Under the pieces are notes generated by a model that saw nothing but the letters and a program-made list of their open reading frames with translations, was not told the origin of the DNA and searched no databases. A stretch of DNA of 62,410 bases, the filler included, from Stramenopiles sp. TOSAG23-2 (taxonomy: Eukaryota): assembly GCA_900128395.1 (NCBI GenBank). It is 6 parts of 6 records of this genome, joined end to end, with 100 filler letters (N's around TTAATTAATTAA, not from the genome) between each part and the next. Parts side by side here need not be neighbours in the genome. Positions count along the whole stretch, not along the records: positions 31,269 to 41,587 come from LT650031.1; 5 more parts are not named here. One strand, written 5' to 3'. The position numbers and the translations under genes were made by a program. Each line of letters starts with the position of its first letter. The first letter of the stretch is position 1. Shown here in pieces: positions 1-41,213 of the stretch.

Positions 1-10
1 TTTAGAACAA

Positions 11-6000: not shown

Positions 6001-6136
6001 TGCGGTTGGTTTGGGAGAGTGGGACCCAATTGCGGGATTTGCTGGGCAAGGTGGCCCTGCAAACGAAAAAATGGTTGAACGTGGTAGAGATGGTTGTGTC
6101 ATTATTCGAACACCAGGGTTTTATCAATTAGACTGA
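11..6136 (+). CDS. Giant multidomain protein, probably 5'-partial: ankyrin-like segment, ~17 WW-like repeats, coiled coil, TRAF-type zinc fingers, C-terminal glycine-rich domain
   Basis: 2041-aa ORF open from the contig edge. Repeats W-x-E-x-x-D/H-x-x-TG-x-x-FYYN-x(5-6)-W-x-KP; CTWGC/CNLKC/CPQGC/CRLDC..H...C fingers; LWGGGGGGG...GGGGGSSY tail. Confidence 0.85.
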   Translation: MYETMMTERLKSHQTRQFPLEWVIDAALRFRREVDMKPLVTVIEGAAETRAREKAGLPDPPWGTKVPIHTYVEHIDPRDTVRLSPILKERVQDVIDEYGPPNKTVTWVHMDGHEEEVSTPLKKPEFCFIIKTAIEQSHVNLLNTCGRTPLFKCVDPLRLLLKRGHVDCANNLLNEHQADTRVLDQKKVSVEDIIRGIHYRKEKTDENDEDADKSSSEDEDSEEDGAVVTSPLPTRNDAGHDSGSEIETDSESEDDDIFGPKGREHKVHASLKFMNKWSDKVWFPLRNKAEHLRSCKAWAEYTSVGNDFTFFFHKREASTQIHTPLVVEQVQKELLGWALLREQSDLVQTDTHGWIEFIDKNATGEPFYYYPQMRKSQWSRPVTFEPLEDSKEGLSIAAEKERQKLLDEKTKLGWARLSAMNKEEWAEFRRDSTKLRKIGQLDEYRHDESGGLFYYSEDAEDSVWEKPKEFLALEKRKYSWHLINHMSRARWQDLLDRSETIRQIDEYHEKREERHGLIFYYNEDMDVCDWAKPQAVLQEEQNRFGNEVGGETIDDWERVARSSTSLRTLAAWEEFRNEAHGVIFYVSTRGYGGSWMKPDKFLRAEKRHHGFELFATQEFEDYEKLRKRSKRLRSVDPWEEWRDEVTGVVYYFHKHEENTQWKKPHTIVKAEQQRNLWTRRYELSSEIEKIGPWEVRRDNNSKTEEEGMWWTNTETCVVLSERPAEMDEEDRRMRRKHALTRTQTDEEWKQMHAEADIMRAVGPWEELHHHPTGSLFYFNSDTDRYHWEKPEELLLAEKTKRGTDLVAKERPEDWRRIRTESEVLRTVGDWSELRNEETGIVFYFNSTSVQSLWHRPDAIKELEQKKRGWWMVNKQTREQWDQMIGGSTLLREFEAMQEWRHRETLAIFYNDIVTETTSWDKPAILVKHDRDSLAPEMGGWSDREWGLVRMRSEKMRRVNAWHELRDGATSVIFYYNDDTGHYQLNKSEPVLENEKRKRAWTLVRKQKHGDWAEMRSHSSVLRNVLHYQELRDDLTQAVFYYDTKSPVGQCSWKKPDELWEYEKVERGRQIVKNQPPEDWLDLRLRAQEIRRIKRWFEFREPDTGMTFYFNDDTEESSWEKPIEIIDYDAISRGWQRILNESKDVEETHLDGKWEEIIEDRFGATFYKNTKELRCAKLPFCQWAKPQDIIDVEDAERLKIKLNRPIALCEEFISDVTNWTRILQRSKKIRNKPYLNNGWVEYFDDYSGIHFFHKEDQLGQNNPYSDSIELKQNSLDGGGSGFKGIGQASSIAEVQVSFVKPHAFRKYDRKMFFWATLIRRSIKLRTFTQKGWTEYVDTRLNDYFYVHEKDELRSWKKPSEILKDDEDEAWEVIIADVEQVLGHEQRGPSGWKVMRHKLSKQQVYHHKHLGCTWIKPQAVIDDSRALQRKKKELEDLERRSKTLERDKADAKRIGGYLAHAKKIKESIVLASENLLDDNFESDQEDDDEDMTQEEKHLLKLKRRRERLALVLEEDDRLRRNKKKKKNMTRRKRRLGERLAHSKQLLSEIHLFVEEATERKNLGFQICTWGCGEWLLMAEQKHHVANTCPKRMLPCNLKCGLFLRAEFWDWAGTRETHEENECVKRKVMCPQGCKKAVVFEDLEVHCQTQCAKRRIPPLHCRLDCGMVWIGGMDRYKAMLQEREEHEKEECQERIVQCDWVNIKKDNMRCMAEVKAKDLRAHRQEHVKTFGISYFRVHGGHSYKVPRKTKELKFQLWGGGGGGGHLFGSNGGGGTGGGGGYIEGILKVTPGETLDIVVGAGGDGGVHGTLIPNKNSLAEAKYDMGIAYGGEPGGGNGYASNGAWAAGAGGGFTAIFRNGPWGKETILVAGGGGGGGSRNGCPGGGFEGGQTADDPRNGKGGTQLEGGEGGHFPLNENWSWDGDENNIIGKEGGQWQGGHGSIFGAGGGGGFFGGGGGGSTPGIVGGGGGGSSYASDAVKHVVTLIGEVDQPGGMNRKPPTAVGLGEWDPIAGFAGQGGPANEKMVERGRDGCVIIRTPGFYQLD

Positions 6137-11342: not shown

Positions 11343-13130
11343 ATGACGTCGGCTTTGAATCGAAGATTGTATCTGTACAAAAACTTTATACGACTCTCAT
11401 CACTTTCTTCTTTTCCACTCTCCGTCGAATCTTCTTTGCTGGTTTGCACCTTTTTTAAATGAGTTGAAAAATTATAAAGATATATGTAATATGTATGCCC
11501 ATGTAGCTTTCCACCGTTTGTTTATTCCATATATTAGAAGACTACCACCAGTGATACAATAAGATCAGAATTAATAATGCAAGTCCATCCAATCCAATCC
11601 CATGTTGGATTGACGGGAAAAGAATTTATTGGATTATCTTCACCACGTACAATTACAATAATAAATAATAAATTAAAAGTAACAAATGTTCATGTAGTAG
11701 AACTGGGAGAAAGTTCAAAAACATCATATGCGTGTTTAACAAATACCATATTAAGAAGTTTAAAACTAACGTCTGCTCCTTTAATGTTGCCACCACAATA
11801 TATAACTACATCGTTTTCAACACCTATTTCATGTATTTTATTAAATGAAGAGACAAAGGAAACCATGGAACTTAAAAATTCTACCTTTCGCTTACAACGC
11901 CATATTACAATGGAATTAAATATTGCTAAAAAGAAAAATTTGAAACAGAAACAATTAGTTGCTTTTAAAATTTCATCTCCACGAAATACCACAACTTATT
12001 GCGATATTGTTGTGCTTCCTCAAAAACGTAATGATGATGACGGTGATACAACCATACATGTATATATGGATACAGATGAAGTCAATAGTTCTATGTATAA
12101 AGATGCTTTATCATATGATTTATATATTCAAAGTGAAGTTCAACATGATAATTTATTAATGAATTTTACTCCAATAATGCATGTTGATACGATAATCGAT
12201 GATGGAAGAAAAAATGTATGGGATATTGAACAACAACCTAGGCCAAATAAACAATTATATCCAATTGCAAATGAAACTGATATTGTTGAAAATATTCATT
12301 TTCAAAATCCATCATCAGATATTAATGTAAAAGATGCGGAGTTGACAATTGATACAAGTAATAGACATTTACATCTATCACCAGAAGATTTATCAATATT
12401 GTTTCCAGGGAAAAAACTTCGTTTAAAAAAAGCAGTTGCATATATTCCTGAATTCATTGCAAAATATACTGGATTTGCAGCAAAAGAAACAGTGACTATT
12501 CGAAATGTTGAAACTGGAGATGAGATAAGACATTTAAGAGTGTTAGGTCCAGTACGTAAACGTACTCAAATTGAACTTGCATATACAGATTGTTTAAATC
12601 TTGGCGTTGAAGCACCTGCACGTATCTCAGGTGATAATGTCAATTCAGGTGCAAAATGTATATTAATAGCTGAGGATGATGATGGTAATTTAACAAACAA
12701 CCAAGTAGAATTGAAATCTGGTATTGTCCGTGCATGGCGACATTTACATATATATGAAGATCCAATTGCAGAACGATTAGGCGTTGTTTCAGGTGATTTA
12801 TTAACAGTTGGTATAAAATCACCAAAAAATACAACAATTTTTCATGATGTGTTAGTTCGAGTTGGAAACGATCCAGATGGTGTTCCTGGCTCTGGATTTG
12901 TTTCGAGTATAATTTCTTATTTAAAACCAACATTATTGGCATATGGTTATCCAGCATTACGTTTTGTTAGAGGTACTGGCGATGCAATGTATATACATTT
13001 AGATACAGATGAAGCAAATGCTGCATGTATAGGGAATGCAACTAATTATACGTTATATCAACAAATTGGAAAAGAAAAATTACGATTGATTGGTACTACA
13101 CGATTGGAAACTAAAGAATCGAAAATGTAG
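11343..13130 (+). CDS. pduL: PduL/PTAC-family phosphate acyltransferase with degenerate N-terminal duplicate. Predicted exons 11343-11441 and 11538-13130.
   Basis: SNRHLHLS, FAAKETV, RVLGPVRKRTQIEL, RISGD, AWRHLHI, FHDVLVRV and HLDTDEANAA match PduL. The 517-aa ORF (11577-13130) is open upstream to a TAG acceptor at 11535-11537; phase-0 donor CTG|GTTTGC at 11442. Exon 1 is less certain than the domain call. Confidence 0.85.
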
Positions 13131-15929: not shown

Positions 15930-16835
15930 CTAATCTTTAATAAATACTTTTGGCCTACTAAATATATTGATAGCATCTTCTATCTCTTGAATTTTACGTT
16001 CCAAATTTGCTTTTTTTCTGATAGCACTTGGTGTTTCCACTAACAACGGCATACGTTGTAAATGATCTTTTGTAGCTGCTAAATTGTCTTTTAATATTTT
16101 TAATGTATCAAGTCTTTCCTCCTCTGGCATTAAACTCATACCTGCAGGTGCTTTTTTATTTTCCTCTGCACGTCTTTTTCTTGCTGCATCCTCTGCCATT
16201 TCAGCTTTACGCTCCTGTAAATACAATGGTACTTTACCATAGTTATCACCACTTTTTTGTATGCCAGCATTTGCATCTTCATTATCTTTTTTCTTTGGTG
16301 GAGATGAGGTAACAGCTTCACGTCGATTTTCTGCTATAAAATTTTTTTCTTGTCTTGCTGGCATAGTAATAACTTCACCACGTTTTGGAACAGCTGGTTT
16401 CCGTGTTTCTCGGTTGTTACTACTTTTGACTGGAGAATGACGAGTGTTTTCACGTGCTTTTGCAATTCTTTGCTCGCGAATACGTTTGTTTTTTTCTGCT
16501 AGTTTTGCTTTCTGTTCTTTACGTTCCGTTCTCATACGAGCTGTTTCTTTTGCAATTTCAGATGCTTTCTTTGAATCATTTTGTGCTACACGTGGTTTCA
16601 CATCTTGAAAACGTTTCATTTTGAATTTTCTTGGCTTCGCATCTGCTTTTTGTTGCCTTCGTTCTCTGTTCTCTTGCTGTTTCTCACGCAAAATTCTTAT
16701 ATTTTCCCGTGCATGGTTTCTAGGCTCAATACCTCTTCTACGTTGTACATCTCGTATACCACGTACTGGGTTCATTAAATCACCAACTGCTGAACCTTTT
16801 TTATTATATTTCCTTGCTATCCTTGATGCGTCCAT
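15930..16835 (-). CDS. ENKD1: Enkurin domain-containing protein (ciliary/centriolar)
   Basis: NHARENIRILRE; YGKVPLYLQERK; MPEEERLDTL; IEDAINIFSRPKVFI. Confidence 0.85.
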   Translation of the reverse strand: MDASRIARKYNKKGSAVGDLMNPVRGIRDVQRRRGIEPRNHARENIRILREKQQENRERRQQKADAKPRKFKMKRFQDVKPRVAQNDSKKASEIAKETARMRTERKEQKAKLAEKNKRIREQRIAKARENTRHSPVKSSNNRETRKPAVPKRGEVITMPARQEKNFIAENRREAVTSSPPKKKDNEDANAGIQKSGDNYGKVPLYLQERKAEMAEDAARKRRAEENKKAPAGMSLMPEEERLDTLKILKDNLAATKDHLQRMPLLVETPSAIRKKANLERKIQEIEDAINIFSRPKVFIKD

Positions 16836-17432
16836 AATTATATACGTTTCGTTTCGTTATATATTATTAATTCTTCTCAATATAGAATATATATATATTG
16901 TTGCTTATATAATATTTTATGTATGTATGTATGTAATATCGTATTTCTTATTTTGAAAATGCCTTTTATAAATGTATAATATTTTCAAAAATCATCAAAA
17001 AAGAAGAAATAAGTTAACTGCCAATGCCATCAATTTGAGGAGGCAGTGCTATTCAAATGCTATTATAATATAAGGTAAATTATGTGCGATGAACTATTAA
17101 TATAAATACTTAATACTGGCACTTTAATAATTTCCTTTTTCATAGTACCAAGTATAGCCATAAGTACCTATATATCCTGCACCTATCGTATAGGAGGATA
17201 ATATATATCGATCTTTTAATAAAATATCTGAAATTATATATGTAAGTAGAAAGTAATGTGTGAACGACTTCCTTTGAAAAAAGGAAACTGTTGCAAGTCA
17301 AGTGAGTGTAAAAAATTAAGATTTTCTAATTTTTTATACATAATAGTACTATATATATATATATGTATGTATGTAGACATATGCAGTGCAGCTTTGTAAA
17401 GAGAAATCTTTTAAAAAAATTTTAAAATAAAA

Positions 17433-19435: not shown

Positions 19436-20470
19436 TCATTCATTGTGTTTTTTATCTTTTTTTTTTTTTTTGTACTTTCTTTTCTTTTTCTTTTTTCTAT
19501 TTTTTATATTATCATCATTTATTCTTCTTTTTTTCGTTTTCATATTACTATTATCATTGCTTATGTTATTGATCATATTATTTCTTGTTGTTTTTGTTGT
19601 TGTATTTACTAATTTATAAAACCAACCAAAAATTGTTATGCGATGACGATCAGTTTTCATTAAATCTACTTCATGTAATCTGGGAACATTAAATGCTACT
19701 AAGCTATTAAATTGAGGTGTATGTGTTTCACCACCAACTGTAAGATCAACAAAATTTCCACCTAATTCATAATGCCAATCTTTTGTTAAATAATAAATAA
19801 CTGCAATATCACGTTCATATCGTCTTGATATACCTTGATCATCAACAATATCTTTAAATGCAATATCATCATGTGGTTCAATAAAACAACCACGTGTGTA
19901 TTTAGCAGCTTGAAAAATACCAATACGATTTGATGGCAATAAATTCTTCATACAATTACATAATGCTTCAATAACAAGTGGTACCATTGTATTTGTATGG
20001 TCCTCTTTTGAACTTCGCCATGCAAATGGTGATTTATTTACAACTTGACCATCTCCTACCTCATATCGATGTGCTGTACTTCCAGCTCCATCTTTATATT
20101 TATTGCTACCACCACTGCCTTTATCGGTTTTAGGTATTGCTAATTGCCATTGTTTATCACTTGCATTTTTAATTGATTGTAAGGCACCTACTGCTATATT
20201 ATTTGGTAATACATCATTAATTTTTACAATTTTATTTGATCTTTTCTTCTTTGGATTAAACGAGTTTCTAAATTTATTTATCACATGTTGATTGAAAGTT
20301 TGCGTTTTATTTCTCTCATCTGTTGTCTTTTTAATAAAGTTATTAATTGCTTCATTGCATTTTAACAATTCTTTTTTACTTAATTTTTTCTCAATAGTAG
20401 ATGATGGTGGTGCTTCACCTGCTGCGTTTAAAAATAAACTTGCCCATGGATCATCCTCATTGTTGGACAT
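19436..20470 (-). CDS. 2OG-Fe(II) oxygenase, prolyl-hydroxylase-like (OGFOD1/Tpa1-type catalytic domain)
   Basis: IEPHDD (HxD), IAVIYYLTKDW...GG, PQFNSLVAF...LHEV, RITIFGWF; basic C-terminal tail. Confidence 0.8.
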   Translation of the reverse strand: MSNNEDDPWASLFLNAAGEAPPSSTIEKKLSKKELLKCNEAINNFIKKTTDERNKTQTFNQHVINKFRNSFNPKKKRSNKIVKINDVLPNNIAVGALQSIKNASDKQWQLAIPKTDKGSGGSNKYKDGAGSTAHRYEVGDGQVVNKSPFAWRSSKEDHTNTMVPLVIEALCNCMKNLLPSNRIGIFQAAKYTRGCFIEPHDDIAFKDIVDDQGISRRYERDIAVIYYLTKDWHYELGGNFVDLTVGGETHTPQFNSLVAFNVPRLHEVDLMKTDRHRITIFGWFYKLVNTTTKTTRNNMINNISNDNSNMKTKKRRINDDNIKNRKKKKKRKYKKKKKDKKHNE

Positions 20471-20747
20471 TGTTCAATGTATAAAAGTGTCAATGTAAGT
20501 GGCAGATGTATAATTATTTTGTTTCCTCCTGACTGATTATTTTTCTGTAACAATATATATATATATATGTATATACATATTATAGATGATACCATGTGCA
20601 TCATATATATTATTCAGGATTTGTATTATTATACAGTAGATGCACGTGATGTTGCAAAAGCTGAAGAAATAATATTACTCCGGCACCTTCACTCTGTGTC
20701 AACTGTCAGGCTGCCAATGTTATCACAATGCTAAATTTAACATATAT

Positions 20748-27360: not shown

Positions 27361-28714
27361 TTACAAGTCATAATTAAAAGTATCAAAAGAATCACCCCAC
27401 ATTGATTTTATTAACTTCTTCTGTTCATCTGTTAAATTCCTACTTTTTGTGCTTTTCTTGTAACCTTTTAAGGAATCAAGATATTCAACAACACGTTGTT
27501 TCATACCTGATTCGACAAAATCATCCCAATGAAAATGCGAATAAATATCTGTAAGCTTCTTCAATGGATTTTTGTTTAATTCATCAAAAGAAAGTTCAAA
27601 TAAATTTTCTTTTGGTATTAGTTTACGATCACGAACGTAATTTTTATATAATGTTTGATATTGCCAAATTATGAAATCAATCACCTCCTCATTTGTTGGT
27701 GTATTTAAATAACTATACCAATATGCGGTATCAGCCATCCTAGCAGCAGAGAGGAATACATCGTATGGGTTCCGGTGTATATATATGAATTTTGCATTTG
27801 GAAATAATTGATACAATAATTTTACGCGTCCAGTATGTACTGGTGATTTAATCAACAATGGTTTAGATTTTGCAGTTCCATCCCACGTATTTGTGTATCT
27901 TAATGTTACTTTTTTCATCAGAAACAAGAAGGATTCCAACCATAGCTTTTGCTCTTGCTTTGTACCACCATTTTCAAAATTAATGTAATTGCGATATTCT
28001 TTTTCATTTTTCATAAATACAATTGGCTGATAGTAACTGGTACCCTTTGACAAAACATTGACTCCTAGCTCATCTTCTTGTGGGGAGTCCTTTAATGCGT
28101 GATGCAATATAGGAGAAAGAGGGAGTGTTATGTTAGAAAAAATTCTCCATAAGAGGTTTCGGGAAAGAGAATTTACATACCAACGTCAACGCCATATTAT
28201 CCATTGGGCGTTTATTATCAACAACATTCTTCAGATATACTTTGAAACGTTCTAATAGCAAAAATCCAGAAGGAAAACCTGCTTGAAACGTGTTTGTATA
28301 AGCAAATTTTGAATCTAACGATAGGAGATTAAATAAATGTGTTGTGCCAGTTCTTGGATGACCTAAAATAAACACGGGCCTATCATTTAACTCTTGACGT
28401 TGAATAGCTTTACCATAGATAAAATGTTCTATGCTTGAAACAAATGAGTTATTAATAGACATAATTGTAATAAACAAAAGCCTCGGCCAATATGTGGCAA
28501 ATTCAATATCGTATTTTCTACGCCAAAGTACAGATAACCATGCAAATAATGTTATTCCAGATAAAATATTATTTTTTGTTTCCATTTGGAATTTAGGTGT
28601 AAAATTGTAAATTGAAGCTGATCTATCCTCAGGTTGTTTTTTCTTAAAAATAACAATAGATATTATTGTTGTTACAACAAGTGTTGCAATAATATATCCA
28701 TATTGAAGTTCCAT
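27361..28714 (-). CDS. Sulfotransferase (P-loop, Sulfotransfer_3-like) with N-terminal TM anchor. Exons 28714-28181 and 28089-27361.
   Basis: PVFILGHPRTGTTHL, KSPVHTGR, FIYIHRNPY. A 91-bp intron (GTATGT...CTAAC...AAG) joins RPMDNMALTL to DSPQEDE in frame. Confidence 0.88.
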
Positions 28715-28904
28715 GGTATATCAAATGTTCGTGCTGCGATTAAATGATGAAATATTATGAACAAATACTATTTGCTCCCTTGTTGTTTGTTACAGTATAT
28801 ATTCTTGCTCTTCATACCAACAGTTAGCCTGGTTAGGTATTTATTATTAATTAAATAAAATTTAAAAAATATTATATTTATTATCGGGATGAGTATGCGG
28901 TATG

Positions 28905-29411: not shown

Positions 29412-29673
29412 AGAGAACAATATATTTGATATATATATATATATATATCAAATATATTGTCATCATTATGTCAAAAGTACAACATCTTAAATATAATATA
29501 TTAGAAAAAAATCTAACGTCGTCAGACGGTAGTGTTGATAAGAGAACAATATATTTGATATATATATATATATATATATATCAAATATATTGTCATCATT
29601 ATGTCAAAAGTACAACATCTTAAATATAATATATTAGAAAAAAATCTAACGTCGTCAGACGGTAGTGTTGATA
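29412..29673. repeat. ~130-bp tandem duplication spanning the aldolase start codon
   Basis: Leader plus the first ~24 codons occur twice; copies differ in (AT)n length. Confidence 0.9.
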
Positions 29674-30503
29674 CATCCGCTGCAAAATTAAAAGCAGAAG
29701 CCGCTGCATCTGGCAGAAGCGAGATAGAAGCAAAAAATCCATTGTTGTTCTCAAAAACCCCAACAACAGAATGGGAATGCAGAGTCCAGTTAGCAGCTGC
29801 ATATCGATTGGCAGATATGTATGGATGGACAGAAGGAATAGGAAATCATTTCACTTGTCGTGTTCCTGAAAATCCAGATCATTTTCTAATAAACAGATTT
29901 GGTGAAGGCTTTGGCGAAGTAACTGCAAGCAGTCTTGTAAAAATTGACCACGAAGGTAATATTGTTGACGAAAATCATACGGACGCTGCCATCAATCTCG
30001 CTGGGTTTGTAATTCATAGCTGCGTTCATCATGCAAGGGATGATTGCTTTGCTGTTTTTCATACGCATGAAACAAATGTTACCGCTGTTTCAAATATGAA
30101 GTGTGGTCTGTTGCCTCTAAACCAGACTGCACTTTTAAATGGCCAAATAGCATATCATGATTATGAAGGTGTGGCGGTCAATGACACAGAGCGTGTTACA
30201 TTAGGAAAAGATTTGGCTGATAAATCTATTATGATCTTAAGAAATCATGGCGTATTAACGACTGGTTCATCCATTGCGGAAGGATTTACTCGTTTGTTTT
30301 ATGTGACAAAAGCTGCAGAAATACAAGTTAAAACAATGGGCGTACATCAAAATACTGAACATATGATTTTTCCACGGACACAAGTACAAAAGTTAGTAAA
30401 GGAGGAACAAGGTTTCGATGGAGGTGCAACAGCATTATCGGAAGCAACATTTCAAATGTGGATGAGGAAATTGGACCGATTTAATCCTGGTTACGATAAA
30501 TAA
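29601..30503 (+). CDS. Class II aldolase/adducin family protein
   Basis: RVQLAAAYRL, NHFTCRVP, EVTASSLVKID, GFVIHSCVH, HTH, ILRNHGVLT. Confidence 0.92.
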   Translation: MSKVQHLKYNILEKNLTSSDGSVDTSAAKLKAEAAASGRSEIEAKNPLLFSKTPTTEWECRVQLAAAYRLADMYGWTEGIGNHFTCRVPENPDHFLINRFGEGFGEVTASSLVKIDHEGNIVDENHTDAAINLAGFVIHSCVHHARDDCFAVFHTHETNVTAVSNMKCGLLPLNQTALLNGQIAYHDYEGVAVNDTERVTLGKDLADKSIMILRNHGVLTTGSSIAEGFTRLFYVTKAAEIQVKTMGVHQNTEHMIFPRTQVQKLVKEEQGFDGGATALSEATFQMWMRKLDRFNPGYDK

Positions 30504-30769: not shown

Positions 30770-31168
30770 TCATTTCACTTGTCTATATTCGCCTCCTTTT
30801 GCCTTAGCTTCTTCAGCCCTTACTTTAGCGGCTTCTTCTACTTTTGCCTCAGCTTCTTCTCTCGCTTCGCGCAACTTCTCGTGCTTCTGCTTTTGCTTTA
30901 GCTTCTTGTGCTTGCTGTTGTGCAGCTTCTCGTGCTTCTTCTGCTTTTGCTTTAGCAGCTTCTTCTGCTTTTGCTTTAGCTTCTTCTGCTTGCTGTTTAG
31001 CAGCTTCCCGTGCTTCTTCTGCTTTTGCTTTAGCTTCTTCTGCTTGCTGTTGTGCAGCTTCTCGTGCTTCTTCTGCTTTTGCTTTAGCTTCTTCTGCTTG
31101 CTGTTGTGCAGCCTCTTCTGCTTTTGCTTTAGCAGCTTCTTCTGCTTTTGCTTTAGCTTCTTCTGCTT
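30770..31168 (-). CDS. 3' fragment of an Ala/Glu/Lys-rich repetitive coiled-coil protein; frameshift near 30868
   Basis: Minus strand reads AEEAKAKAEEAREAAQQQ repeats. The upstream frame stops at 30849-30851 while the same repeat continues in another frame to TGA at 30770-30772. Confidence 0.65.
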   Translation of the reverse strand, partial: KQKKLKQKQKKLLKQKQKRLHNSKQKKLKQKQKKHEKLHNSKQKKLKQKQKKHGKLLNSKQKKLKQKQKKLLKQKQKKHEKLHNSKHKKLKQKQKHEKLREAREEAEAKVEEAAKVRAEEAKAKGGEYRQVK

Positions 31169-31268: not shown

Positions 31269-31515
31269 ATGTTATGTTATGTCTGTTGCGATTTATAATT
31301 ATACAACATTCTATATCTTCTTCTTCATTCTTTGTTGTCATTACAAAATATAAGATCATTTTACATATACATATAAATATAGATATTAAACGAAATAAAT
31401 AAATAGCCAATAAAAACAAGGTGCAAATAATTATTATTACCACTATTTAGATATATATAATATATATTCATTAAATACTAATTAGTACTATATAAATAAA
31501 AGTTTAATATAAATA

Positions 31516-34500
31516 ATGGCATCAAATCTTGCACAAGTTGTAGGAACATTATTAGATTCTGCTATAGATGAAGATGAAGCTGTAGAGGAAAGTGTAAAAC
31601 AAGCATTATGTGAAATAGGAAGCGCTAGGCCACAAGCCGTATTAAGTGCATCGTTAAAATACATTGAAGCTACTCCAAACATAAAGACACACCATAGAGT
31701 GCAAATATTAAAAGCTATACAAGGTGTTATTGAACTTGGTCATAGTAACCTTGATATGGGACAAACTGGTCGTTTATCGACATTTGCGTGTGAGGAAGTA
31801 TTAAAAGGTTCCAAAGTAGAACCATGGGAATCCGCGGCGTGTAACATATTGGTTGCATTATCCCAAGCCAATAGTTCCTCCGTCATGGAAGATTTGACTG
31901 GGAGAGTATCATCAGGCGAAGTACCACATGGTGGAATTATATTAGCTTTAACTGAAATTGCGCGAAATAATCAAAAAGTATTTGTACCATATTTCACTAA
32001 AATATTATCACGTTTGTTGCCAAATTTTGGTGCCATGCAAAAACCCAACTTGCAATATCGAGTAGCTTCAGCGTTGAACCATTTTAGTGATGCTGTAATG
32101 TACGAAGAAATACAGCAAGGTGGTGCGCAAGCAAATTCATTTGCAAGTCGCTCTGCGACGGTTGCAAGTGCATTAAATGCTTTAGCATCTACATGGATGA
32201 TCCAATCGCGTGATGCGCTTGTACGTGGATCTAGTGCTGAAGCTGTTGGTTCTATGTCAAGAATGGTAGATGATGAGCAACTGGATCAATCCTTCGCATT
32301 TGTTATAGGTCATATCGTATCGCTTTTGAAGCGGGAACGAAGTGATAGCGAAGCAAGGCTAGGTTTAACTCGTGGCCTGGTCTTGTTATTAACACGTGCG
32401 AAAACAATGGCTGAGTCTCATTTAGCAGAATTGCTTGAGGTTTTGCATCCATTAGCTTGCAATCCAATTGATTATACAATACCGTTGACAAATCGTGTGC
32501 GTACAGAGCTGTTGCGCAGTATTGAGGCACTGACATCTACATTTCCAGCAAAAGTAATCCAATTCTTAGTGACGACGTTAGATGTTCCAAAACCATCGTT
32601 ACAAGTTGGTACTTGTGTTATTTTAAAACATTTAGTGAATGCTTCTACGAAAGAAATAACAGATGCTGGGATGAGAGAACACTTAATATCAGGTGTTCTT
32701 AAATTGTTAAGTGAAAAAGATTTGGAAGTACGCGGTGCATTTGCACAATTAATTGTTGCTATGGGAAAAGCAGGTTTTTTAACAATGGGTGGAGGACGCG
32801 AATTAGTTCTCTTTGTCGTCAAACAATGTGCAATTGGAAAGGATGAGATAATAGAATGGGAAAATAATCAAAAAGGATGGTTCTCTAAAGGTGGTTCAGG
32901 GACATCCCCAGCTCAATTGCGGGCAGGGTGCGAACGTTTTGTAGATGCACTTGGTCAGTGCGCTCAAAAAGCCGTATGGCCATTACTCTTCACAGTTCTA
33001 GTGCCAGGGGAGTACAAAGCTTCTTTAACACCAGTTACAAAATGTTTGTGTCAAGTTGCTAGAAATTCAAATACAGATACATTAAAAAATTTGATGATAA
33101 ACTCCGATGTGCCGAAAACTTCTGAGATATTTGCAAGGTTAATAGTGTTGTCATCTTGCATTATCGCAAAGGATCATATGGTAGATGAACAACCATGTTC
33201 AAAGGCCGATTTAAACCGGTTTAAAGAACAAGGATGGAATTCGCTAGATTTGTTAAGTGCGATTGGCCCTATATTTGATAAGAATATCAAAGAATCGTGG
33301 TCACAACATGGAACAATAAAGCGTTTAGAAGAAATTTACAAACGTTCTTCTTCCTCTTTAAATAGTAATAATGATGAAAAAAAGGTGGTAACCGATTTTT
33401 TTTCATATGACTCAGTCGAGGAAGTTTTCTCCTCCTCAAAGTACAACCCTGTTGCATTGTTGATGTCATCGTTCCATAAAGTGCCAGGAAATTGGCTAGC
33501 GGATGTTGGCGATGCATTGATTAGTCATATAGATAGCGGAATGTATAATAACGATCGAATATTGAAAGCATCTGCATATGTATGCCTAGGTACGTTAATC
33601 TCAGCCATGACTGGTGCAGAGAGGCCACGAAAGTGGATTGTAGAAATGCTGAAATCAGTAAATCATTTTGACACCATGGAGCGAAATGGTTTAGCAATTG
33701 GTTTGGGTTTAGCATGTGGAAGGCAAGGTTCGCATTTAGATATGGTTTTGCAAGCAATAGCTGGCGTTATTCGTGACGATACAGTTGTGAAATCTTCTGG
33801 TTGGTTTGGTGGTGGAAGTGAACGAAGCGAGGATGAATGTGATGCCATAAAAGGAACCATGTTACTGGCATTGGGTTATTGTACCACATTTGCGCCTCTA
33901 GAAACTTTGAGTTCACGTGTTGAAGCACATGTTGCTAGTCATTTTCAAGCTGCTTTGGAAAAATTGCCTTTGAACAAAATCGATTTACGCGATTGTTTAT
34001 TACGTGGATTAATTGAAATCAGCTGTGCTATAGGGAAGAAAGGATCTAATTTACAACTTTCTATGCGGGATTATTTCTTAAGCACAATATCCACATGGGT
34101 TTCGGAATTGTTAAGTAAGAAAAAGGTTGATATTGAACCGTCAAGTGCAACTTGTAGCCTTGTGCTTGAGGCATGTGCTGGCTTAGTTGCGGTCGTCCCT
34201 AAACCTGAAAATACTGTTATTGCGAATATTCTAAGCAATGTATTAATTATAGTGCAAAGTTCTTTTGAGGATGATAAGACAGATGTTATCCAACCATTAT
34301 CAATGTTTTTTCAAGCTTGTGTTTCGGTATCCGCGTCAAGCGATGTACTAGAACTATTATGTTTCAGCTACCCAGGTGGTGAGGATGATGAAACGAAAGA
34401 GGATTCCCTATTTGCGTGGACCGACTCAGAAACTGCGTTTCAAAGATATCGCGCAGTACAAGTTATATGTGAAACATTGGAAACTTATTTAAGGCATAAT

Positions 34501-36666
34501 ACACGCAATGATTTGCCCGTTGAGAAATTTTTTTTCATACTTTTGCCTCGTGTGATGGACTCTGAAAAGGATGTTCGTAAGGCAGCCTTAAAAGCTGTAA
34601 ATTTAGTCGTCGGTGCAAAAGAAAAACAGCGGCAAAATCGTATAGTAAATGCTTCATCATTGCAAAGATTTGCAGAATTTAAAGTTTTAGTAAAATCATG
34701 CATTAAAAAAGTAAACCCAGAAAGTTTAATTGGCGATGCAGAGGCAATTAACCTACTTTTACGCGGTTTGAACGATGTAGATTCTGCTGCATCGTGCGCA
34801 GCAAGTGAAGTTTTGTACAATGTATTTCAATTACATGGCTCTAAATTGCAAGGTACGATTGATGTGATGATTAGTGATGAAAACGATGATGAAGAAAGTA
34901 ATGATGATAAAAAAGATGAAAAAAATAAAAATAAAAATAATGCAAATAATGATGATCATGATGTAAATCGCGGTAAGTTGGTACGTGCATTGGACGGACA
35001 GTTGAAAGATATTGGTGGTAACGATGAAGATGGAAATTACCGCATGTTAGCAAAAAATACCACGTTAGCTGCCATTAGAGTGTTGGCAAGATATCATTTC
35101 AAATTGTTTGTTAATACTTTGCTCAACACAGCATTGCCATATCATGAAGCGATACGAGAAGTTTTTGTTGCATTGAGTATGGAAAAATTTGATCGTGCGG
35201 AAGGACAGCAAAATCCACTTGACGGTACAATGTTGGAAAATTTAGTAGAGCATTTAACTTTGACATTAAATGATGCAGCTCCAGGAAATGAGGACGAACC
35301 AAATCAAATAGTTTCCGCTGCACATCGGGCATTTGAAATTTTATTTAGTTCTGCAGGTCAAGAAATAACTATGTTTATTGATCAGCAATTTTGTCCTTTG
35401 GTATGTACATTATTGCTGAGTATTGGAAGCGTAAATTGTGCACTTAAATGTGATGGTATGGAAAATGGAAGTGCGATTGATGCATTGAAGCAATTGTTTA
35501 CACGTGCATGTGCAAATAATTTGATAGAAAAGATGGAAACATTGATAGATGAGTACGATGATGAGTCTTCTATCGAACGACAACTTACCAGTGGGAATTC
35601 ATTTGATGATGCTATTTCAGAAATTATCGTTAGTATGTCTGATGATGATTATTGCAACCCAGAGAAAGTGTTCTTAATAGTTCAAAGTTTCCTGAATAGT
35701 CCAAATGGCGGACAACGCGTAGCGGCAAGTGCAATTTGCTCGTCACTTATCCTTACGTGTGTGCAAAATGTTGATAAAAAAAATGATGATTCCAAAAAGT
35801 CGATGGATTTATTGAAAAATTTGATCAAAGCAATTTTAGCGCGTGCTACCGACAGTGAGGCAAAAGCAAGGAAACATGCTTTTAAGTCACTTGGCGAATT
35901 AGGAAATTGCAAAAATAATGAAGCGTTAATGCCTGCGATGCCAACAATTTTGAATGTCTTAAATAACGGTTTAGATGATGAAGCGATAGATGTTAAAGTT
36001 GAAGCTTTGAGGTCAATGTCAATATTAATTAAAACATTGCCTGAAAGTCAAATTGTACCGATATTAATGAATGTTTGCTTTCGCGTGCAAAATGTTTTCT
36101 CTGTAGATGATGGGGATGTAAGAACTTTGGGATTTCAAGTATTAGAAATTATGTGTAAATTTGAAGGTAAAACTTCAGGAAATTTTGAGGAACAATGCTT
36201 TGTTTTATTGCCAGTCGTTTTAATGCATTTGAACAGTACATTTGAAGTGTCAAAAGCCGGTTTAAAATGTTTGAATCAATTAATTTTATTATTAGGAAAA
36301 GAAACAAACGCTTTGAAAGAACTTATTAATAAACATACTAGCAAAGGTTATCGTGGGAATATAATTGATGATTTTGAACCATTTGTATCTGATATTACAA
36401 AATTTTTAATAAAATTACATCCAAATCGAGCTGAAGCATGGGTTAGTAAAAGCAATCAATTAGTTCAAAATGATAATGAATGGCCAGATACTAGAGGTTC
36501 AATTGCAATTATTCTAGGCAATTTTATAGCCAGTCTTCCTAGTTCAATACGCTCTAGAGTTGGCGTTGGTCCTGTTTGTACATCATTAGTCGCATTGTTG
36601 GAAAATGATAATGCAAGTGTTAGATCAAGAGGTGCTTTGGCGTTGTCATTGTTAAAAGATTTATAA
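31516..36666 (+). CDS. MROH1: Maestro HEAT-like repeat protein (MROH1/HEATR7/SGR6-like)
   Basis: 1716-aa all-helical HEAT-type sequence; TLLDSAIDEDEAVEESVKQALCEIG, ILKHLVNA, FVVKQCA, VWPLL. Confidence 0.8.
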   Translation: MASNLAQVVGTLLDSAIDEDEAVEESVKQALCEIGSARPQAVLSASLKYIEATPNIKTHHRVQILKAIQGVIELGHSNLDMGQTGRLSTFACEEVLKGSKVEPWESAACNILVALSQANSSSVMEDLTGRVSSGEVPHGGIILALTEIARNNQKVFVPYFTKILSRLLPNFGAMQKPNLQYRVASALNHFSDAVMYEEIQQGGAQANSFASRSATVASALNALASTWMIQSRDALVRGSSAEAVGSMSRMVDDEQLDQSFAFVIGHIVSLLKRERSDSEARLGLTRGLVLLLTRAKTMAESHLAELLEVLHPLACNPIDYTIPLTNRVRTELLRSIEALTSTFPAKVIQFLVTTLDVPKPSLQVGTCVILKHLVNASTKEITDAGMREHLISGVLKLLSEKDLEVRGAFAQLIVAMGKAGFLTMGGGRELVLFVVKQCAIGKDEIIEWENNQKGWFSKGGSGTSPAQLRAGCERFVDALGQCAQKAVWPLLFTVLVPGEYKASLTPVTKCLCQVARNSNTDTLKNLMINSDVPKTSEIFARLIVLSSCIIAKDHMVDEQPCSKADLNRFKEQGWNSLDLLSAIGPIFDKNIKESWSQHGTIKRLEEIYKRSSSSLNSNNDEKKVVTDFFSYDSVEEVFSSSKYNPVALLMSSFHKVPGNWLADVGDALISHIDSGMYNNDRILKASAYVCLGTLISAMTGAERPRKWIVEMLKSVNHFDTMERNGLAIGLGLACGRQGSHLDMVLQAIAGVIRDDTVVKSSGWFGGGSERSEDECDAIKGTMLLALGYCTTFAPLETLSSRVEAHVASHFQAALEKLPLNKIDLRDCLLRGLIEISCAIGKKGSNLQLSMRDYFLSTISTWVSELLSKKKVDIEPSSATCSLVLEACAGLVAVVPKPENTVIANILSNVLIIVQSSFEDDKTDVIQPLSMFFQACVSVSASSDVLELLCFSYPGGEDDETKEDSLFAWTDSETAFQRYRAVQVICETLETYLRHNTRNDLPVEKFFFILLPRVMDSEKDVRKAALKAVNLVVGAKEKQRQNRIVNASSLQRFAEFKVLVKSCIKKVNPESLIGDAEAINLLLRGLNDVDSAASCAASEVLYNVFQLHGSKLQGTIDVMISDENDDEESNDDKKDEKNKNKNNANNDDHDVNRGKLVRALDGQLKDIGGNDEDGNYRMLAKNTTLAAIRVLARYHFKLFVNTLLNTALPYHEAIREVFVALSMEKFDRAEGQQNPLDGTMLENLVEHLTLTLNDAAPGNEDEPNQIVSAAHRAFEILFSSAGQEITMFIDQQFCPLVCTLLLSIGSVNCALKCDGMENGSAIDALKQLFTRACANNLIEKMETLIDEYDDESSIERQLTSGNSFDDAISEIIVSMSDDDYCNPEKVFLIVQSFLNSPNGGQRVAASAICSSLILTCVQNVDKKNDDSKKSMDLLKNLIKAILARATDSEAKARKHAFKSLGELGNCKNNEALMPAMPTILNVLNNGLDDEAIDVKVEALRSMSILIKTLPESQIVPILMNVCFRVQNVFSVDDGDVRTLGFQVLEIMCKFEGKTSGNFEEQCFVLLPVVLMHLNSTFEVSKAGLKCLNQLILLLGKETNALKELINKHTSKGYRGNIIDDFEPFVSDITKFLIKLHPNRAEAWVSKSNQLVQNDNEWPDTRGSIAIILGNFIASLPSSIRSRVGVGPVCTSLVALLENDNASVRSRGALALSLLKDL

Positions 36667-36962: not shown

Positions 36963-38495
36963 TTACTCAAAGATGTTTTGCAAAACATCATCCGAAAGTT
37001 GGAATATTTCATTATCAATAGATGTGCTATCAAAAATTCCTTCATTTTCTGTCATATCTTCAAAATTATGCATATTATTAATATTATTCTGAACTTGTTG
37101 CTGTTCATTGCTTTTTACTTCTTCTTGTACTGAATGATCTTCATGAGTTTTCTTTTCACCAACTTTAGCTCTTTTTTGAATGTCATTCCTAATAAAACTA
37201 TTGCTACTACTGCTACTACTCCCATCTAACGTATTTACTTCTGACTGTGCACGCTTTTTGTTTTTTTCTTTCTTACGTTTTCTAGGTGTAACTTCAACGA
37301 TTTCACACATATTCATAAACATTTCTCCATCAACTGATCTTTTTGTTGTGTACCGTAGTTTTGCATTTAATGGTTCACTTGATTCCCATTTGCACATGGG
37401 AATGGAATTCATGTCAAAATTTGCAGTAAAAGATGGCACATCGCTTTGACCATCATCAAAATATTGTTCAAATGAATTTTTTGATTCTGTCAAAATACCA
37501 TTTATGAACAATTTAGAGATTTGGTATTTTCTAACTAAATCACAATCAAGTACAGCATTAAAAATATTTTTATTATCATAACCATTTCCTTGTACCCATC
37601 CATCATCCAGCGGAGTTAAAACAGGATATTTCATGAACTCCTTGAATTTTGAGTTTGTCACATGAGCAACTAAACCATAGAATGAGAGGCAGATTAGCAG
37701 AGGATTATGATGTTTTTCCATTTTTAAATGCGTTTTTCGAACTTGCAACAAAATTTTATCGTCTTTAACTTTTGCTGATTTCTTCGGATCCAGCTGAGAT
37801 ATAATGTAAGCACATTTACTGGTAAAATCTTTAAAGTCCATTTTTAATTTCTGCGAAGCAATAGTTGATTTACTAATTCCTGCATAATCATCAGTACGGA
37901 AATTAATCCATAAGTTGCTCAACACGCAACTTCTAGCAATAGCATGTAATCGATCCAACTTTTCCGTTTCGACAATAGCCCTATCCGCTATAGCTAACTT
38001 GGCCAATTCGTCGACGTTTAACGGATAACAAGATACTAGTGAATTCTCTACGTTCAACTCGTATTTTTTTAATCTCGCATTGCGCTTTTCCAGCTCTTCC
38101 TTGCCAGGCCTTCCGCGCTTCGTTTCTACGCTTACACATTCATACCCTTTACGTTTACAACGACGGCATACAGGCCATGATCTCTATATATACAAAATTC
38201 AATGATATTGATAGTTGTTAGACATGCGTGTTTCATAATAATAATAGGTGTATTGAATATTATACATCATATAATATTCAACGATATTGATAGTTGTTAG
38301 ACATGCGTGTTTTATAATAATAATTGGTGTATTGAATATTATACATCATATAATACTTACGTCACATTTAGTTTTATCCCTGCGACACTGTTCACAATTA
38401 TAAGGCAACTTTTTGCACCCATTCTGTTCTACATAGGGAGGATTCCTCCCTAGGTCTTCACAGCCACAGCCATCTTTTTTCATTTCCACATCCAT
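36963..38495 (-). CDS. Zn(II)2Cys6 (GAL4-type) transcription factor, 451 aa. Exons 38495-38361 and 38183-36963.
   Basis: Splicing GTAAGT(38360)...CTAAC...TAG(38184) gives CEQCRRDKTKCD|RSWPVCRRCKRKGYEC then KRGRP, in frame with track ORF 36963-38057; acidic C-terminus. Confidence 0.9.
38197..38354. repeat. 79-bp tandem duplication inside the Zn2Cys6 intron
   Basis: Units start at 38197 and 38276; three substitutions. Confidence 0.9.
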
Positions 38496-38915
38496 TATGA
38501 TTCTTTTATATCAGATATATTTGTCTGTATATACAGTCATATATATCTATATATCTTATCTCTTTCCAATTCCATATATATATATATATATATTTACTAC
38601 ATACAGTAAACAACCATCGTCAATTTAAATTGTTCTGATACATAATTATTAGTAGATATGCACATATTAGCTCTACGACGGGGGCACACCGCACACCAGC
38701 CCAGCCAGCACACCATGTTGATGTTTCCGAATCTGAAATCCACGTTCGCGAACATATAGAAATAACATTATGAATATACCTTAATCTATCAAATTGTTTA
38801 AATTTGTACCATAGCACTAATAAATTTATCAGCATTCCTGGCATTCAGGCATTCAGGCATTCCAGCATTCTGGCATTCCACCAGCATTCGCACATTACCA
38901 GTTATCCAGTTAGTC

Positions 38916-38941
38916 TATTATACCAGGTACCTGGTATAATA
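38916..38941. promoter_or_regulatory. Perfect 26-bp palindrome made of two overlapping TACCAGGT motifs in a divergent promoter
   Basis: TATTATACCAGGTACCTGGTATAATA, preceded by a GCATTC array at 38830-38890. Regulatory role is inferred. Confidence 0.5.
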
Positions 38942-39188
38942 ACATTCCAGCATATTAATATTCAGACCAGCAGACTGGCAGACGACCAGCAGACGAGTAA
39001 CTATAATATAATAAAAAATAAAAACTTGCATTGACTATTAATATATACTACTGCTCAACAGATAGAGAATATATCGCAAAAGCAAGAAGCTGAGCTTGGA
39101 AAATAGTCCATTTCAGGAAAATTACACACTCATACATACACACAGATACATACATATATTAATTATCGTGAAAACCAAACAAGTAAAT

Positions 39189-41213
39189 ATGAGCATTACA
39201 AAAGATGTAACACAATATAAAGTAACCGAGAATACAGCACAAATGGGAATGGCTGTCGCAATGAGTAAAGAATTTGAGGTAGAAGAAGATACACCTGAAG
39301 ATTTAGCAATGCTAGCTAAAATATATTCAGGTTTTGACCATGATGTAGGAGAGCAAAGTACATTCAATATTAATTCGTGGGGAGATCGAGATGCTGTTGC
39401 CCCAACAAAAGCAAAGGGAATGGATAAACCAGGTAGAAAATATTTAAGATGGAAATCGAAAGTTGTAAAAGATGAAGAAGAAGTAAGGGACACAAGAATT
39501 GCAGAAAATAGTGCAATTCCATCGCCATTATACCCAATGATAAAAGAAAGGGTTAAAATGATTGCCTGTTCGTTTGATAGCACAGTTATCTTGACCGTAA
39601 ATGGAAGATTACGTTACATGTCTGTAGAAAGAAATTTAGGGGAATTAAAGGAGGATATTTCTTTAACTTCTCGTCGAGTGAAATATATTGCTGCAGGCGC
39701 ATATCATTTCGGTGCTATAACAGAAGAGCCTACTTTAAATCTATATATGTGGGGAAAAAATGATAAATATCAATTGGGTCAAGGAGATAGCACGAAAGAC
39801 ATACATGTACCAGAAAGAGGCCAAGTGCGGTCTTTGCAAGGTATTAGAATTGTACATATAGCACTAGGGGGTAAATTTACATTCGCTGTCACTTCATTAA
39901 ATATAGTATACGCCTGGGGCGATAATTCAAATCAACAGCTTGGTATGGGTAGTCGAGATAAGAAAACTGGTGCATGGATTCCACCTGAATCAGGTACTAT
40001 GGATGTTGTAAAAAATCCTAGGCGGGTAGAGGAGCTTAATAGGCAAAAAACATCCGGGACAGATGTGGTTCGTATAGGGGATGAAAAAAATGAACATTTT
40101 GTTCAATTAATGTTAGCCGCTGGGGAAAAACATGCAGTGTCATGGACTAATGTCGAAAAAATGAATCAATTTAGCGAAGATTTTTGGGATCGTTATTCCT
40201 TTTTAAAAAAGAGAATTAAAACTTTAAATTTTCAAATACAATCAAGGGATGCTCAAATCGAGCATTTGAAAACTTCCAACACAGGGGTCAATACAGTAGT
40301 AGGTACGGATAATGCAGATGGTTTAGTAGATCGTCGTGTAACGGAAGACGAGACGTTGATGATGACTGGTGATATGTTGACAAAGTTACAAGAGGATTTA
40401 GGAACTGTTGTACGCAGACGACAAGAAATACATAAGATTGTTCAAACCGAAGAGTTTCGAAAAAAGGAAGTGCAAGATGAAGTTGCATTGATTGAAAGAA
40501 ATATTAAGGTTCTCTGGGATAATGCTGAGCAATTGACATACGATTATCAAACGTTAGAAGATCAACCAGGCAAAACCAGGCAAATGATGAAAGAATTAGA
40601 GGCAAAACAAGTGGAATTGCAAGGGAAACAAAATTTAGCAAAAGCTGCTGAAAATACATTGATAGTTGAAAGCATGAAATTGAATGTATTTGAATCAAAA
40701 TTAGAAGAATTGTTTGAAGAAGATATGGAATTGTCTGGACAGCAATCAGAGTTGGAGAAAAAGACCCGCCTTGTTAATAAATTATACATACAAAGAGATA
40801 AATTTTTACGACAGAAATATTTAGAAATGCACCAGGAAGATATATTTGATATGATTGACTTAGTTAGAACATTATGGCAAAAAATCAAATCAACTGCAGT
40901 AACATCATTTACTGCAGATATGTCTGAAATGGAACGGTTAACAAAATTAATTGGTAGGCGCCCTGGATTACAAGATATTATAGATGAAAGTGATGCATTA
41001 TTAGAACAATATATTGTACAAGCTGATATAGAACTTTCAAAATTAATCGATTCTGCAGATGCTAGAAAAGATTTAGCTGATTTGTTGAGAGAAATATTGC
41101 ATGATATAATTGCTATGCGTCATGAAATAAACGCCTACTTGGCTGGCATACTGCAACAAACAAGTCAAAGGCTAGAGAGAATATTTCGGAAATCATTGAC
41201 AGTAGAGCAATGA
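39189..41213 (+). CDS. RCC1-repeat protein with long C-terminal coiled coil
   Basis: IAAGAYHF...LYMWGKNDKYQLG; IALGGKFT...VYAWGDNSNQQLG; LAAGEKHA. First ATG at 39189. Confidence 0.85.
   Translation: MSITKDVTQYKVTENTAQMGMAVAMSKEFEVEEDTPEDLAMLAKIYSGFDHDVGEQSTFNINSWGDRDAVAPTKAKGMDKPGRKYLRWKSKVVKDEEEVRDTRIAENSAIPSPLYPMIKERVKMIACSFDSTVILTVNGRLRYMSVERNLGELKEDISLTSRRVKYIAAGAYHFGAITEEPTLNLYMWGKNDKYQLGQGDSTKDIHVPERGQVRSLQGIRIVHIALGGKFTFAVTSLNIVYAWGDNSNQQLGMGSRDKKTGAWIPPESGTMDVVKNPRRVEELNRQKTSGTDVVRIGDEKNEHFVQLMLAAGEKHAVSWTNVEKMNQFSEDFWDRYSFLKKRIKTLNFQIQSRDAQIEHLKTSNTGVNTVVGTDNADGLVDRRVTEDETLMMTGDMLTKLQEDLGTVVRRRQEIHKIVQTEEFRKKEVQDEVALIERNIKVLWDNAEQLTYDYQTLEDQPGKTRQMMKELEAKQVELQGKQNLAKAAENTLIVESMKLNVFESKLEELFEEDMELSGQQSELEKKTRLVNKLYIQRDKFLRQKYLEMHQEDIFDMIDLVRTLWQKIKSTAVTSFTADMSEMERLTKLIGRRPGLQDIIDESDALLEQYIVQADIELSKLIDSADARKDLADLLREILHDIIAMRHEINAYLAGILQQTSQRLERIFRKSLTVEQ

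Follow-up and report, generated by a model that had tools for sequence, protein, structure and literature searches.

Zinc-cluster factors are the largest class of regulators in fungi, and the question raised by the locus described here is whether a gene from Stramenopiles sp. TOSAG23-2 encodes such a factor, in what kind of host it resides and what kind of effector domain it carries. The gene occupies positions 36963..38495, on the minus strand, of a 62,410-nt stretch of DNA (assembly GCA_900128395.1, six parts joined end to end; the gene is in the part from LT650031.1), and this whole stretch is referred to below as the window. In the first-pass annotation it was read as a protist zinc-cluster regulator with a novel effector domain. 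The spliced factor proved to be real and its host is probably a protist, but the effector is likely to be PAS-like rather than wholly novel.

Gene structure and the zinc cluster

The frame that appears in the list of open reading frames (ORFs) as 36963..38183 is the second exon of the gene (Table 1). Cysteines four to six of the zinc cluster are encoded here, together with the KRGRP motif, a helix, the middle part of the protein and its tail. When it was joined by script to the short exon upstream, a product of 451 amino acids (aa) was obtained with one stop, at its end. The intron carries a branch-like motif, TCTAAC, 32 nt 5' of the acceptor AG. Most of its length is taken up by a tandem duplication; TCTAAC is present in each 79-nt copy, and the intron without the duplication would be about 98 nt long.

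A public record of 451 aa (P0005), for which a transcript or a gene model is alike possible as the source, shares the junction 38361/38183. Its residues 1-45 are identical to the exon 1 product, the identity extends over residues 1-123, and 11 of the 451 positions differ from the window product overall. In two longer relatives, P0003 and P0022, the cluster is unbroken and the alignment runs without a gap across the junction. The joined exons and these three records thus bear out the hidden upstream exon, the junction and the 451-aa product that had been proposed. Two records of 420 aa from other contigs, P0013 and P0017, start in the 3' end of the intron (MSNNYQYH...) and run on into exon 2; they open with MSNNYQYHWILYIQ followed by RSWPVC, as obtained by translating the final 42 nt of the intron and reading on into exon 2. 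Where these proteins carry W and Q, the window has TGA and TAG in this frame, and the acceptor AG is conserved (CAG in their contigs, TAG in the window). Since both ORFs start within the intron, the intron exists in the genomic contigs of related strains.

The cluster of the joined product fits the Zn2Cys6 rule CX2CX6CX5-12CX2CX6-8C, and at residues 34-61 it is as canonical as first described. P0005 stood for the window product in the Pfam scan and gave a match to Zn_clus (PF00172) of 33.1 bits (E 6e-8, profile positions 3-38 of 39), the gathering cut-off being 21 bits, while exon 2 alone gave 14.8 bits (E 0.031), under the cut-off. Exon 1 alone matched no Pfam family, as would be expected if two unrelated ORFs had been joined through a fortuitous GT...AG and no such protein were made. 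Against this stand the rise of the Pfam score on joining, the separate record with the same junction, the relatives at 29-42% overall identity that carry the same cluster in one piece, and the fact that only three candidates of the form GTAAGT...YTAAC...YAG, this intron among them, were found in a scan of the minus strand of the 62-kb window. The chance explanation is effectively refuted already, and on the sequence evidence this is a genuine two-exon gene encoding a GAL4-class factor.

In GAL4-type proteins, a lysine and a proline within the cluster have roles in CGG contact and loop geometry. Searched against the PDB, the family profile matched the DNA-binding domains of GAL4 (E 5.9e-5), PPR1 (6.5e-5), LAC9 (5.4e-4) and HAP1 (4.4e-3). 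The alignment with GAL4 (1d66_A) spans GAL4 residues 7-64 and so takes in the linker and dimerisation helix; the lysine that precedes the third cysteine and the proline that precedes the fourth both have their GAL4 counterparts in it.

Downstream of the cluster, both the KRGRP motif and the short helix were recovered, the latter as a prediction in two models (73-85 or 73-90). The linker sequence T(K/R)RGRP(G/A/R)K is conserved in all six family members that cover this region. An AT-hook consists of an RGRP core with basic flanks; the Pfam AT_hook family gave a weak match (E 0.2), to P0022 alone. Helix 73-90, predicted with heptad-spaced hydrophobic residues, is presumed to be a dimerisation element. 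A homodimer prediction for two copies of residues 28-350 scored 0.00 against a mark of 0.32; it was made with no alignment and with the fold uncertain, and speaks neither for nor against pairing. At the other end of the protein the acidic tail was likewise confirmed, and its terminus is a conserved hydrophobic-acidic motif, DDVLQNIFE (36966-36992).

Table 1. Features of the zinc-cluster gene and its surroundings; positions are those of the window and residues those of the 451-aa product.
Feature	Position	Strand	Remarks
Exon 1	38361..38495	-	ATG at 38495; 45 codons; carries the first three cluster cysteines; ends ...CEQCRRDKTKCD
Intron	38184..38360	-	177 nt; 23% G+C; GTAAGT donor, TATAG acceptor
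Tandem duplication inside intron	38190..38355		79-nt unit, 2.1 copies, 94% match; bulk of the intron
Exon 2	36963..38183	-	406 codons (38183-36966); TAA at 36965-36963
Zn2Cys6 cluster, residues 34-61	38136..38396 (including intron)	-	CX2CX6CX6CX2CX6C; Pfam Zn_clus and PDB profile matches
KRGRP, residues 67-71	38106..38120	-	Basic, AT-hook-like RGRP in the linker; conserved
Short predicted helix, residues 73-90	38049..38102	-	Two models (73-85/90); L76, L83 and V90 heptad-spaced
Helical region, residues 101-205	37704..38018	-	Contains the best-conserved family motif
Motif ARSxxLSxxWxxxRxxDYxG, residues 128-148	37875-37937	-	From the family alignment
Putative PAS-like domain, residues ~206-345	37284..37703	-	Two strands, three helices, three to four long strands; from model, Foldseek and language-model neighbours
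Basic cluster PRKRKKEKNKKR, residues 345-356	37251..37286	-	Presumed nuclear localisation signal
Disordered acidic tail, residues 376-451	36966..37193	-	Net charge -10; presumed activation domain
CGGN7CCG palindrome-type site	38679..38691		184 nt upstream of ATG; candidate zinc-cluster site

The family and its middle region

A word-based search returned 3 clusters of relatives. An exhaustive HMMER search of 1,835,955,588 representatives, with a profile of the middle region and tail from which the zinc cluster was excluded, gave 8 proteins with E<=0.001, of which 4 had E<=1e-10 and 3 had E<=1e-30. The family is very small and is otherwise seen only in environmental contigs. It falls into a short subfamily (the window protein, P0002/P0018, P0019, P0020 and P0026) and a long one (P0022, of 669 aa, P0003 and P0023-25), the latter distinguished by a glutamine-rich insert that separates the cluster from the middle region. 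Common to both are the cluster, T(K/R)RGRP, the motif ARSxxLSxxWxxxRxxDYxG, residues ~200-345 and a C-terminus ending in ...IF(E/D). The cluster of database entries to which the window protein itself belongs has 58 members; among the 15 listed, 13 were called as ORFs of 219-364 aa without the zinc cluster, and two further ORF calls (420 aa) start within the intron and retain only the second half of the cluster. The lesson for annotation is that ORF calls beginning inside the intron or beyond it miss the zinc cluster in part or altogether.

The gene next to the factor, an MROH gene, is linked to the zinc-cluster gene in two other records, contigs of 6981 nt and 9331 nt, and this conserved linkage argues for a stable, and apparently functional, locus. 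In the relative to which the 9331-nt contig belongs, MROH is 81% identical and the zinc-cluster protein 55-56%, the two presumably sharing that contig, so the factor seems to evolve faster than its neighbour. When the window was scanned for paralogues, as had been suggested, no second zinc cluster and no second family motif were found in it. The sole regular-expression match to a cluster (30933-31043) was set aside as a false positive, since it comes from a low-complexity stretch that one frame translates as a Cys/Phe/Ser run.

The middle region had been taken for a novel effector domain. In an AlphaFold model from an alignment of 11 sequences, residues ~190-349 reached pLDDT values of 57-83, and the modelled elements were strands at 207-213 and 216-221, helices at 223-228, 249-256 and 261-278, and strands at 280-284, 294-309, 316-328 and 333-345. 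Their order, beta-beta-alpha-alpha-alpha-beta-beta-beta, resembles that of a PAS domain, the reference fold being a five-stranded antiparallel sheet with helices in the order beta-beta-alpha-alpha-alpha-alpha-beta-beta-beta. When the model was compared with the PDB by Foldseek, a check suggested in the first-pass annotation, PAS and LOV domains made up 29 of the 32 matches listed, all of them weak (the lowest E was 5.6e-3, with probabilities of up to 1.00 and target-normalised TM values of up to 0.58); the other three were one designed protein and two DOCK2 chains.

In a language-model (Atlas) search with residues 85-345, PAS clusters scored 0.84-0.86 and were surpassed by a top hit at 0.88 that carries no name. 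With the whole protein, the named clusters at ranks 1, 2, 3, 5 and 7 of those displayed carry PF24990 PAS_13 (0.80-0.82), and four of these five also carry Zn_clus. The top names were Glucose starvation modulator 1 (Gsm1), transcriptional regulator of nonfermentable carbon utilization and ERT1/acuK family PAS protein. They stand for a fungal family of regulators of carbon metabolism that has a C-terminal PAS domain and controls gluconeogenic or respiratory genes. According to the available text of PMC12719309, AcuK, AcuM, Ert1, Rds2, Gsm1, Aod2/5 and Pas2 combine Zn2Cys6 with PAS; factors of the AcuK/AcuM type form homo- and heterodimers, recognise CCGN7CCG in Aspergillus and need their PAS domains, and function is lost on changing one PAS glycine. 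A comparison by eye with the PAS core given in the same text found the N..F.E spacing matched near residues 220-225.

Several results weigh against the PAS assignment. The mean pLDDT of the whole model is only 46.1, and a first model from 6 sequences, with a mean of 34.6, was unusable and was left out of the Foldseek search. None of the 500 Foldseek matches reached E<=0.001, none of the 11 family members matched a Pfam PAS family even at E<=10, and beyond the zinc cluster the profile search of the PDB gave no match of PAS type. By the tool's own scale Atlas scores below 0.9 are leads only, and all scores here are below it. By eye, a lysine appears to occupy the position of the glycine that AcuK and AcuM need (acuM G418, acuK G535; PMC12719309, available text). 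Other matches to the middle region were discarded: APPL1 BAR and chromobox in the PDB (E 0.045-0.4) were weak and scattered and were taken as noise, and the Pfam matches to SAS-6_N, OspC, TFIIA and others concerned one member each (E 0.06-8.8).

These negatives would be explained if the middle region of a real zinc-cluster factor were a new fold unrelated to PAS, and the likeness an artefact of a model from a shallow alignment and of embedding neighbours with low scores; the Atlas scores of 0.77-0.88 lie in a range often reached by shuffled proteins. Against a new fold, the structural route (AlphaFold with Foldseek) and the language-model search converge from different information, the ten best family-bearing Atlas matches all fall in one family or clan, and the order of secondary structure in the best-modelled stretch fits PAS. 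We therefore hold a new fold to be rather unlikely. A divergent PAS-like fold is, judging by the models, a probable though not a firm assignment, and the novel effector domain first proposed is more probably of this kind.

No match to the Fungal_trans middle homology region (PF04082/PF11951) was found in P0005 or in the 11 members at E<=10. The window factor thus resembles GAL4, PPR1, LAC9 and HAP1 (PDB 1d66, 1pyi, 1cld, 1hwt) in the six-cysteine spacing, the lysine and proline, the basic linker and the short helix, and differs from them in its RGRP linker, its intron-split cluster, the lack of Fungal_trans and its apparently flagellate host. Its nearest named Atlas neighbours are the ERT1/AcuK family. 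Like ERT1, AcuK, AcuM, Rds2 and Gsm1, it has an N-terminal cluster, a putative dimerisation element and a predicted PAS-type domain in that order, and its two subfamilies are reminiscent of the AcuK/AcuM pair. Unlike that family, none of the 11 members matches PF24990 and, by eye, the PAS glycine appears not to be kept; the window factor is also shorter, with the basic cluster and a long acidic tail after the PAS-like part. White-collar-type factors, which couple a GATA zinc finger to PAS/LOV and scored 0.77-0.78 in Atlas, share with it a zinc DNA-binding domain and, if the prediction holds, PAS, but belong to another DNA-binding class.

Host, neighbouring genes and origin

The zinc-cluster gene lies between the MROH gene (31513-36666) and a divergent gene for an RCC1-repeat protein (39066-41213), in a window whose G+C content is 24-42%. 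An enkurin gene at 15930-16856 has axonemal proteins as its PDB matches: 12 of the 13 are enkurin, FAP106 or CFAP106 (E 2.1e-16 to 3.3e-5). Its presence indicates that the organism very probably builds flagella, and non-flagellated fungi are thereby excluded, while zoosporic (flagellated) fungi are still compatible. Other genes of the window encode Tesmin/CXC with an F-box, Ephrin_rec_like, ALK_LTK_GRD, GH28, part of GH35 and a prolyl-hydroxylase-type oxygenase. The proposal that the genome is not fungal is plausible in the light of the enkurin, MROH, Tesmin/CXC, Ephrin_rec_like and sulfotransferase genes, with the reservation about zoosporic fungi just given. When the MROH gene was used to place the contig, the close relatives, at 99, 81, 50 and 50% identity, were followed among species-labelled proteins by fish and plant at 22-26% (the nearest fish at 22%), and no fungus was among the 10 hits.

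The sulfotransferase gene at 27361-28720, on the minus strand, appears as two overlapping ORFs. Removal of 28180-28090 (91 nt, GTATGT...TTCTAAC...AG), which is a probable intron, restores one frame of 422 aa. As the window is dominated by long single-exon genes and both introns carry strong signals, the genome appears to be intron-poor with strong splice signals. Fungal introns have such donors and branch motifs, and flagellar genes occur in chytrids as well.

These features could mean that the host is a zoosporic fungus or a close relative of fungi, and the gene a fast-evolving, vertically inherited member of the ERT1/AcuK/Rds2 family. The architecture would match (Atlas; PMC12719309, available text), and the GTAAGT and GTATGT donors and CTAAC branch-like motifs resemble those of fungal introns. 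This explanation has to account for PF24990, which is present in 96-100% of the members of the listed fungal clusters and in none of the 11 here, for the lack of Fungal_trans, and for the MROH hits. The Tesmin/CXC, Ephrin_rec_like, ALK_LTK_GRD and sulfotransferase genes would also be unusual in fungi. We regard a fungal host as quite unlikely.

Outside fungi, zinc clusters are patchy. Available excerpts of Scazzocchio 2014 (PMC5611559) give 71 for Naegleria gruberi, 24 for Ectocarpus, 7 for Capsaspora, 1-2 for dictyostelids and 1 each for two diatoms, and two Zn2Cys6 factors, one of them regulating lipid metabolism, are described for Nannochloropsis in those of PMC12744764. With such precedents, in Naegleria, Ectocarpus, Capsaspora and diatoms, the mere presence of a zinc-cluster factor in a protist is no novelty. 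The occurrence of zinc clusters in various non-fungal species has been attributed either to an ancient origin followed by losses or to transfer from fungi, and the question is unsettled (Shelest 2017, PMC5415576; PMC5611559; available parts of both). The non-fungal proteins, by their published descriptions, share with the window factor a canonical cluster joined to a non-fungal downstream architecture.

A whole Zn2Cys6 + PAS regulator may accordingly have been transferred from an aquatic fungus to a protist, and then have diverged and duplicated into short and long forms. Transfer is one of the two scenarios just mentioned and would fit the patchy distribution (PMC5415576, PMC5611559, as above), the tiny size of the family (8 representatives) and the architecture that it shares with the fungal family. 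It is opposed by the gene's low G+C content and intron, both of the host's type, and by the outcome of the exhaustive search with the middle and tail profile, in which none of the 8 hits was a fungal protein; any fungal donor would thus be past sequence recognition. We consider such a transfer distinctly improbable. It is also doubtful, though somewhat less so, that the family is a highly diverged counterpart of AcuK/AcuM-Rds2/Ert1 in a non-fungal flagellate, in which the short and long forms would make up a heterodimer pair.

The remaining genes of the window bear on other matters. A class II aldolase at 29559-30503 has a EukProt relative at 85% identity, followed by a dinoflagellate (Durusdinium) at 45% and numerous bacteria at 42-49%, a pattern that points to a gene of bacterial type in a eukaryote; being bacterial-like beyond the 85% relative, it is uninformative as a taxonomic marker. 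An ORF of 530 aa (11538-13130) contains a PduL-type phosphate propanoyltransferase domain (Pfam PTAC, 159.6 bits; PDB 5cuo, E 6.7e-19). PduL is mainly a bacterial enzyme and is unusual beside eukaryote-type neighbours. Of the GH35 catalytic domain, the beta-galactosidase ORF at 20804-21982 matches no more than the final ~55 positions, to which C-terminal beta domains are added, and upstream of this ORF lies the oxygenase gene on the opposite strand (19436-20473). Either the beta-galactosidase gene is truncated or its upstream exons escaped detection. The ORF at 2-6136 (>2044 aa), which runs off the 5' end of the window, carries a WW domain and an ALK/LTK-type glycine-rich domain. No tRNA and no Rfam family was found in the window, and Pfam searches of 35 of the 121 further ORFs (70-149 aa, mostly between the long ORFs) gave no family.

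Proposed working and significance

On balance we think it probable that the 451-aa protein is a sequence-specific factor of the GAL4 class, from a very small family, that works in the following way. Its six cysteines would coordinate a pair of zinc ions and recognise a half-site of the CGG type, and KRGRP would add an AT-hook-like contact in the minor groove, which would suit an AT-rich genome. Pairing of two chains through the heptad helix 73-90 would then allow two half-sites to be read. The helical and PAS-like module (residues ~101-345) may sense a signal or bind a partner, possibly a member of the other subfamily, in parallel with the PAS domains of AcuK, AcuM, Rds2, Ert1 and Gsm1. The basic cluster PRKRKKEKNKKR would direct nuclear import, and the acidic tail, which ends in a conserved hydrophobic motif, would activate transcription.

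Upstream of the gene there is a CGGN7CCG site, which might conceivably be an autoregulatory or other zinc-cluster site. It is the single match in the window, where 1.0 is expected by chance, 61 of 100 shuffled sequences have at least one, and the spacing was picked after the site had been noticed; the site is accordingly a weak candidate. Between the gene and the RCC1-repeat gene, at 38830-38880, there are about seven GGCATTC/AGCATTC units, which are followed by repeated CCAGCAGAC units (region 38830-38990); these repeats may form a regulatory array.

Non-fungal zinc clusters and Zn2Cys6 + PAS factors have both been described already, and nothing is overturned by the finding alone. The Nannochloropsis ZnCys factor may also carry a PAS-type domain; if that is true, the combination of Zn2Cys6 with PAS has a protist precedent. 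Support for such a domain was not found in the literature, and the available text of PMC6065045 makes no mention of PAS. For the debate on whether the patchy non-fungal zinc clusters are an old inheritance subject to losses or were acquired from fungi by transfer (PMC5415576, PMC5611559, available parts), a protist family with a cluster and a PAS-like region would, if our reading is true, be a useful data point. Should the family in addition be a counterpart of the AcuK/AcuM group, the Zn2Cys6 + PAS unit would either predate fungi or have moved whole between aquatic fungi and a protist, and it would offer a testable handle on the origin of zinc clusters. For the organism itself, which is known mainly from environmental sequence, the gene would provide a candidate sensor-regulator.

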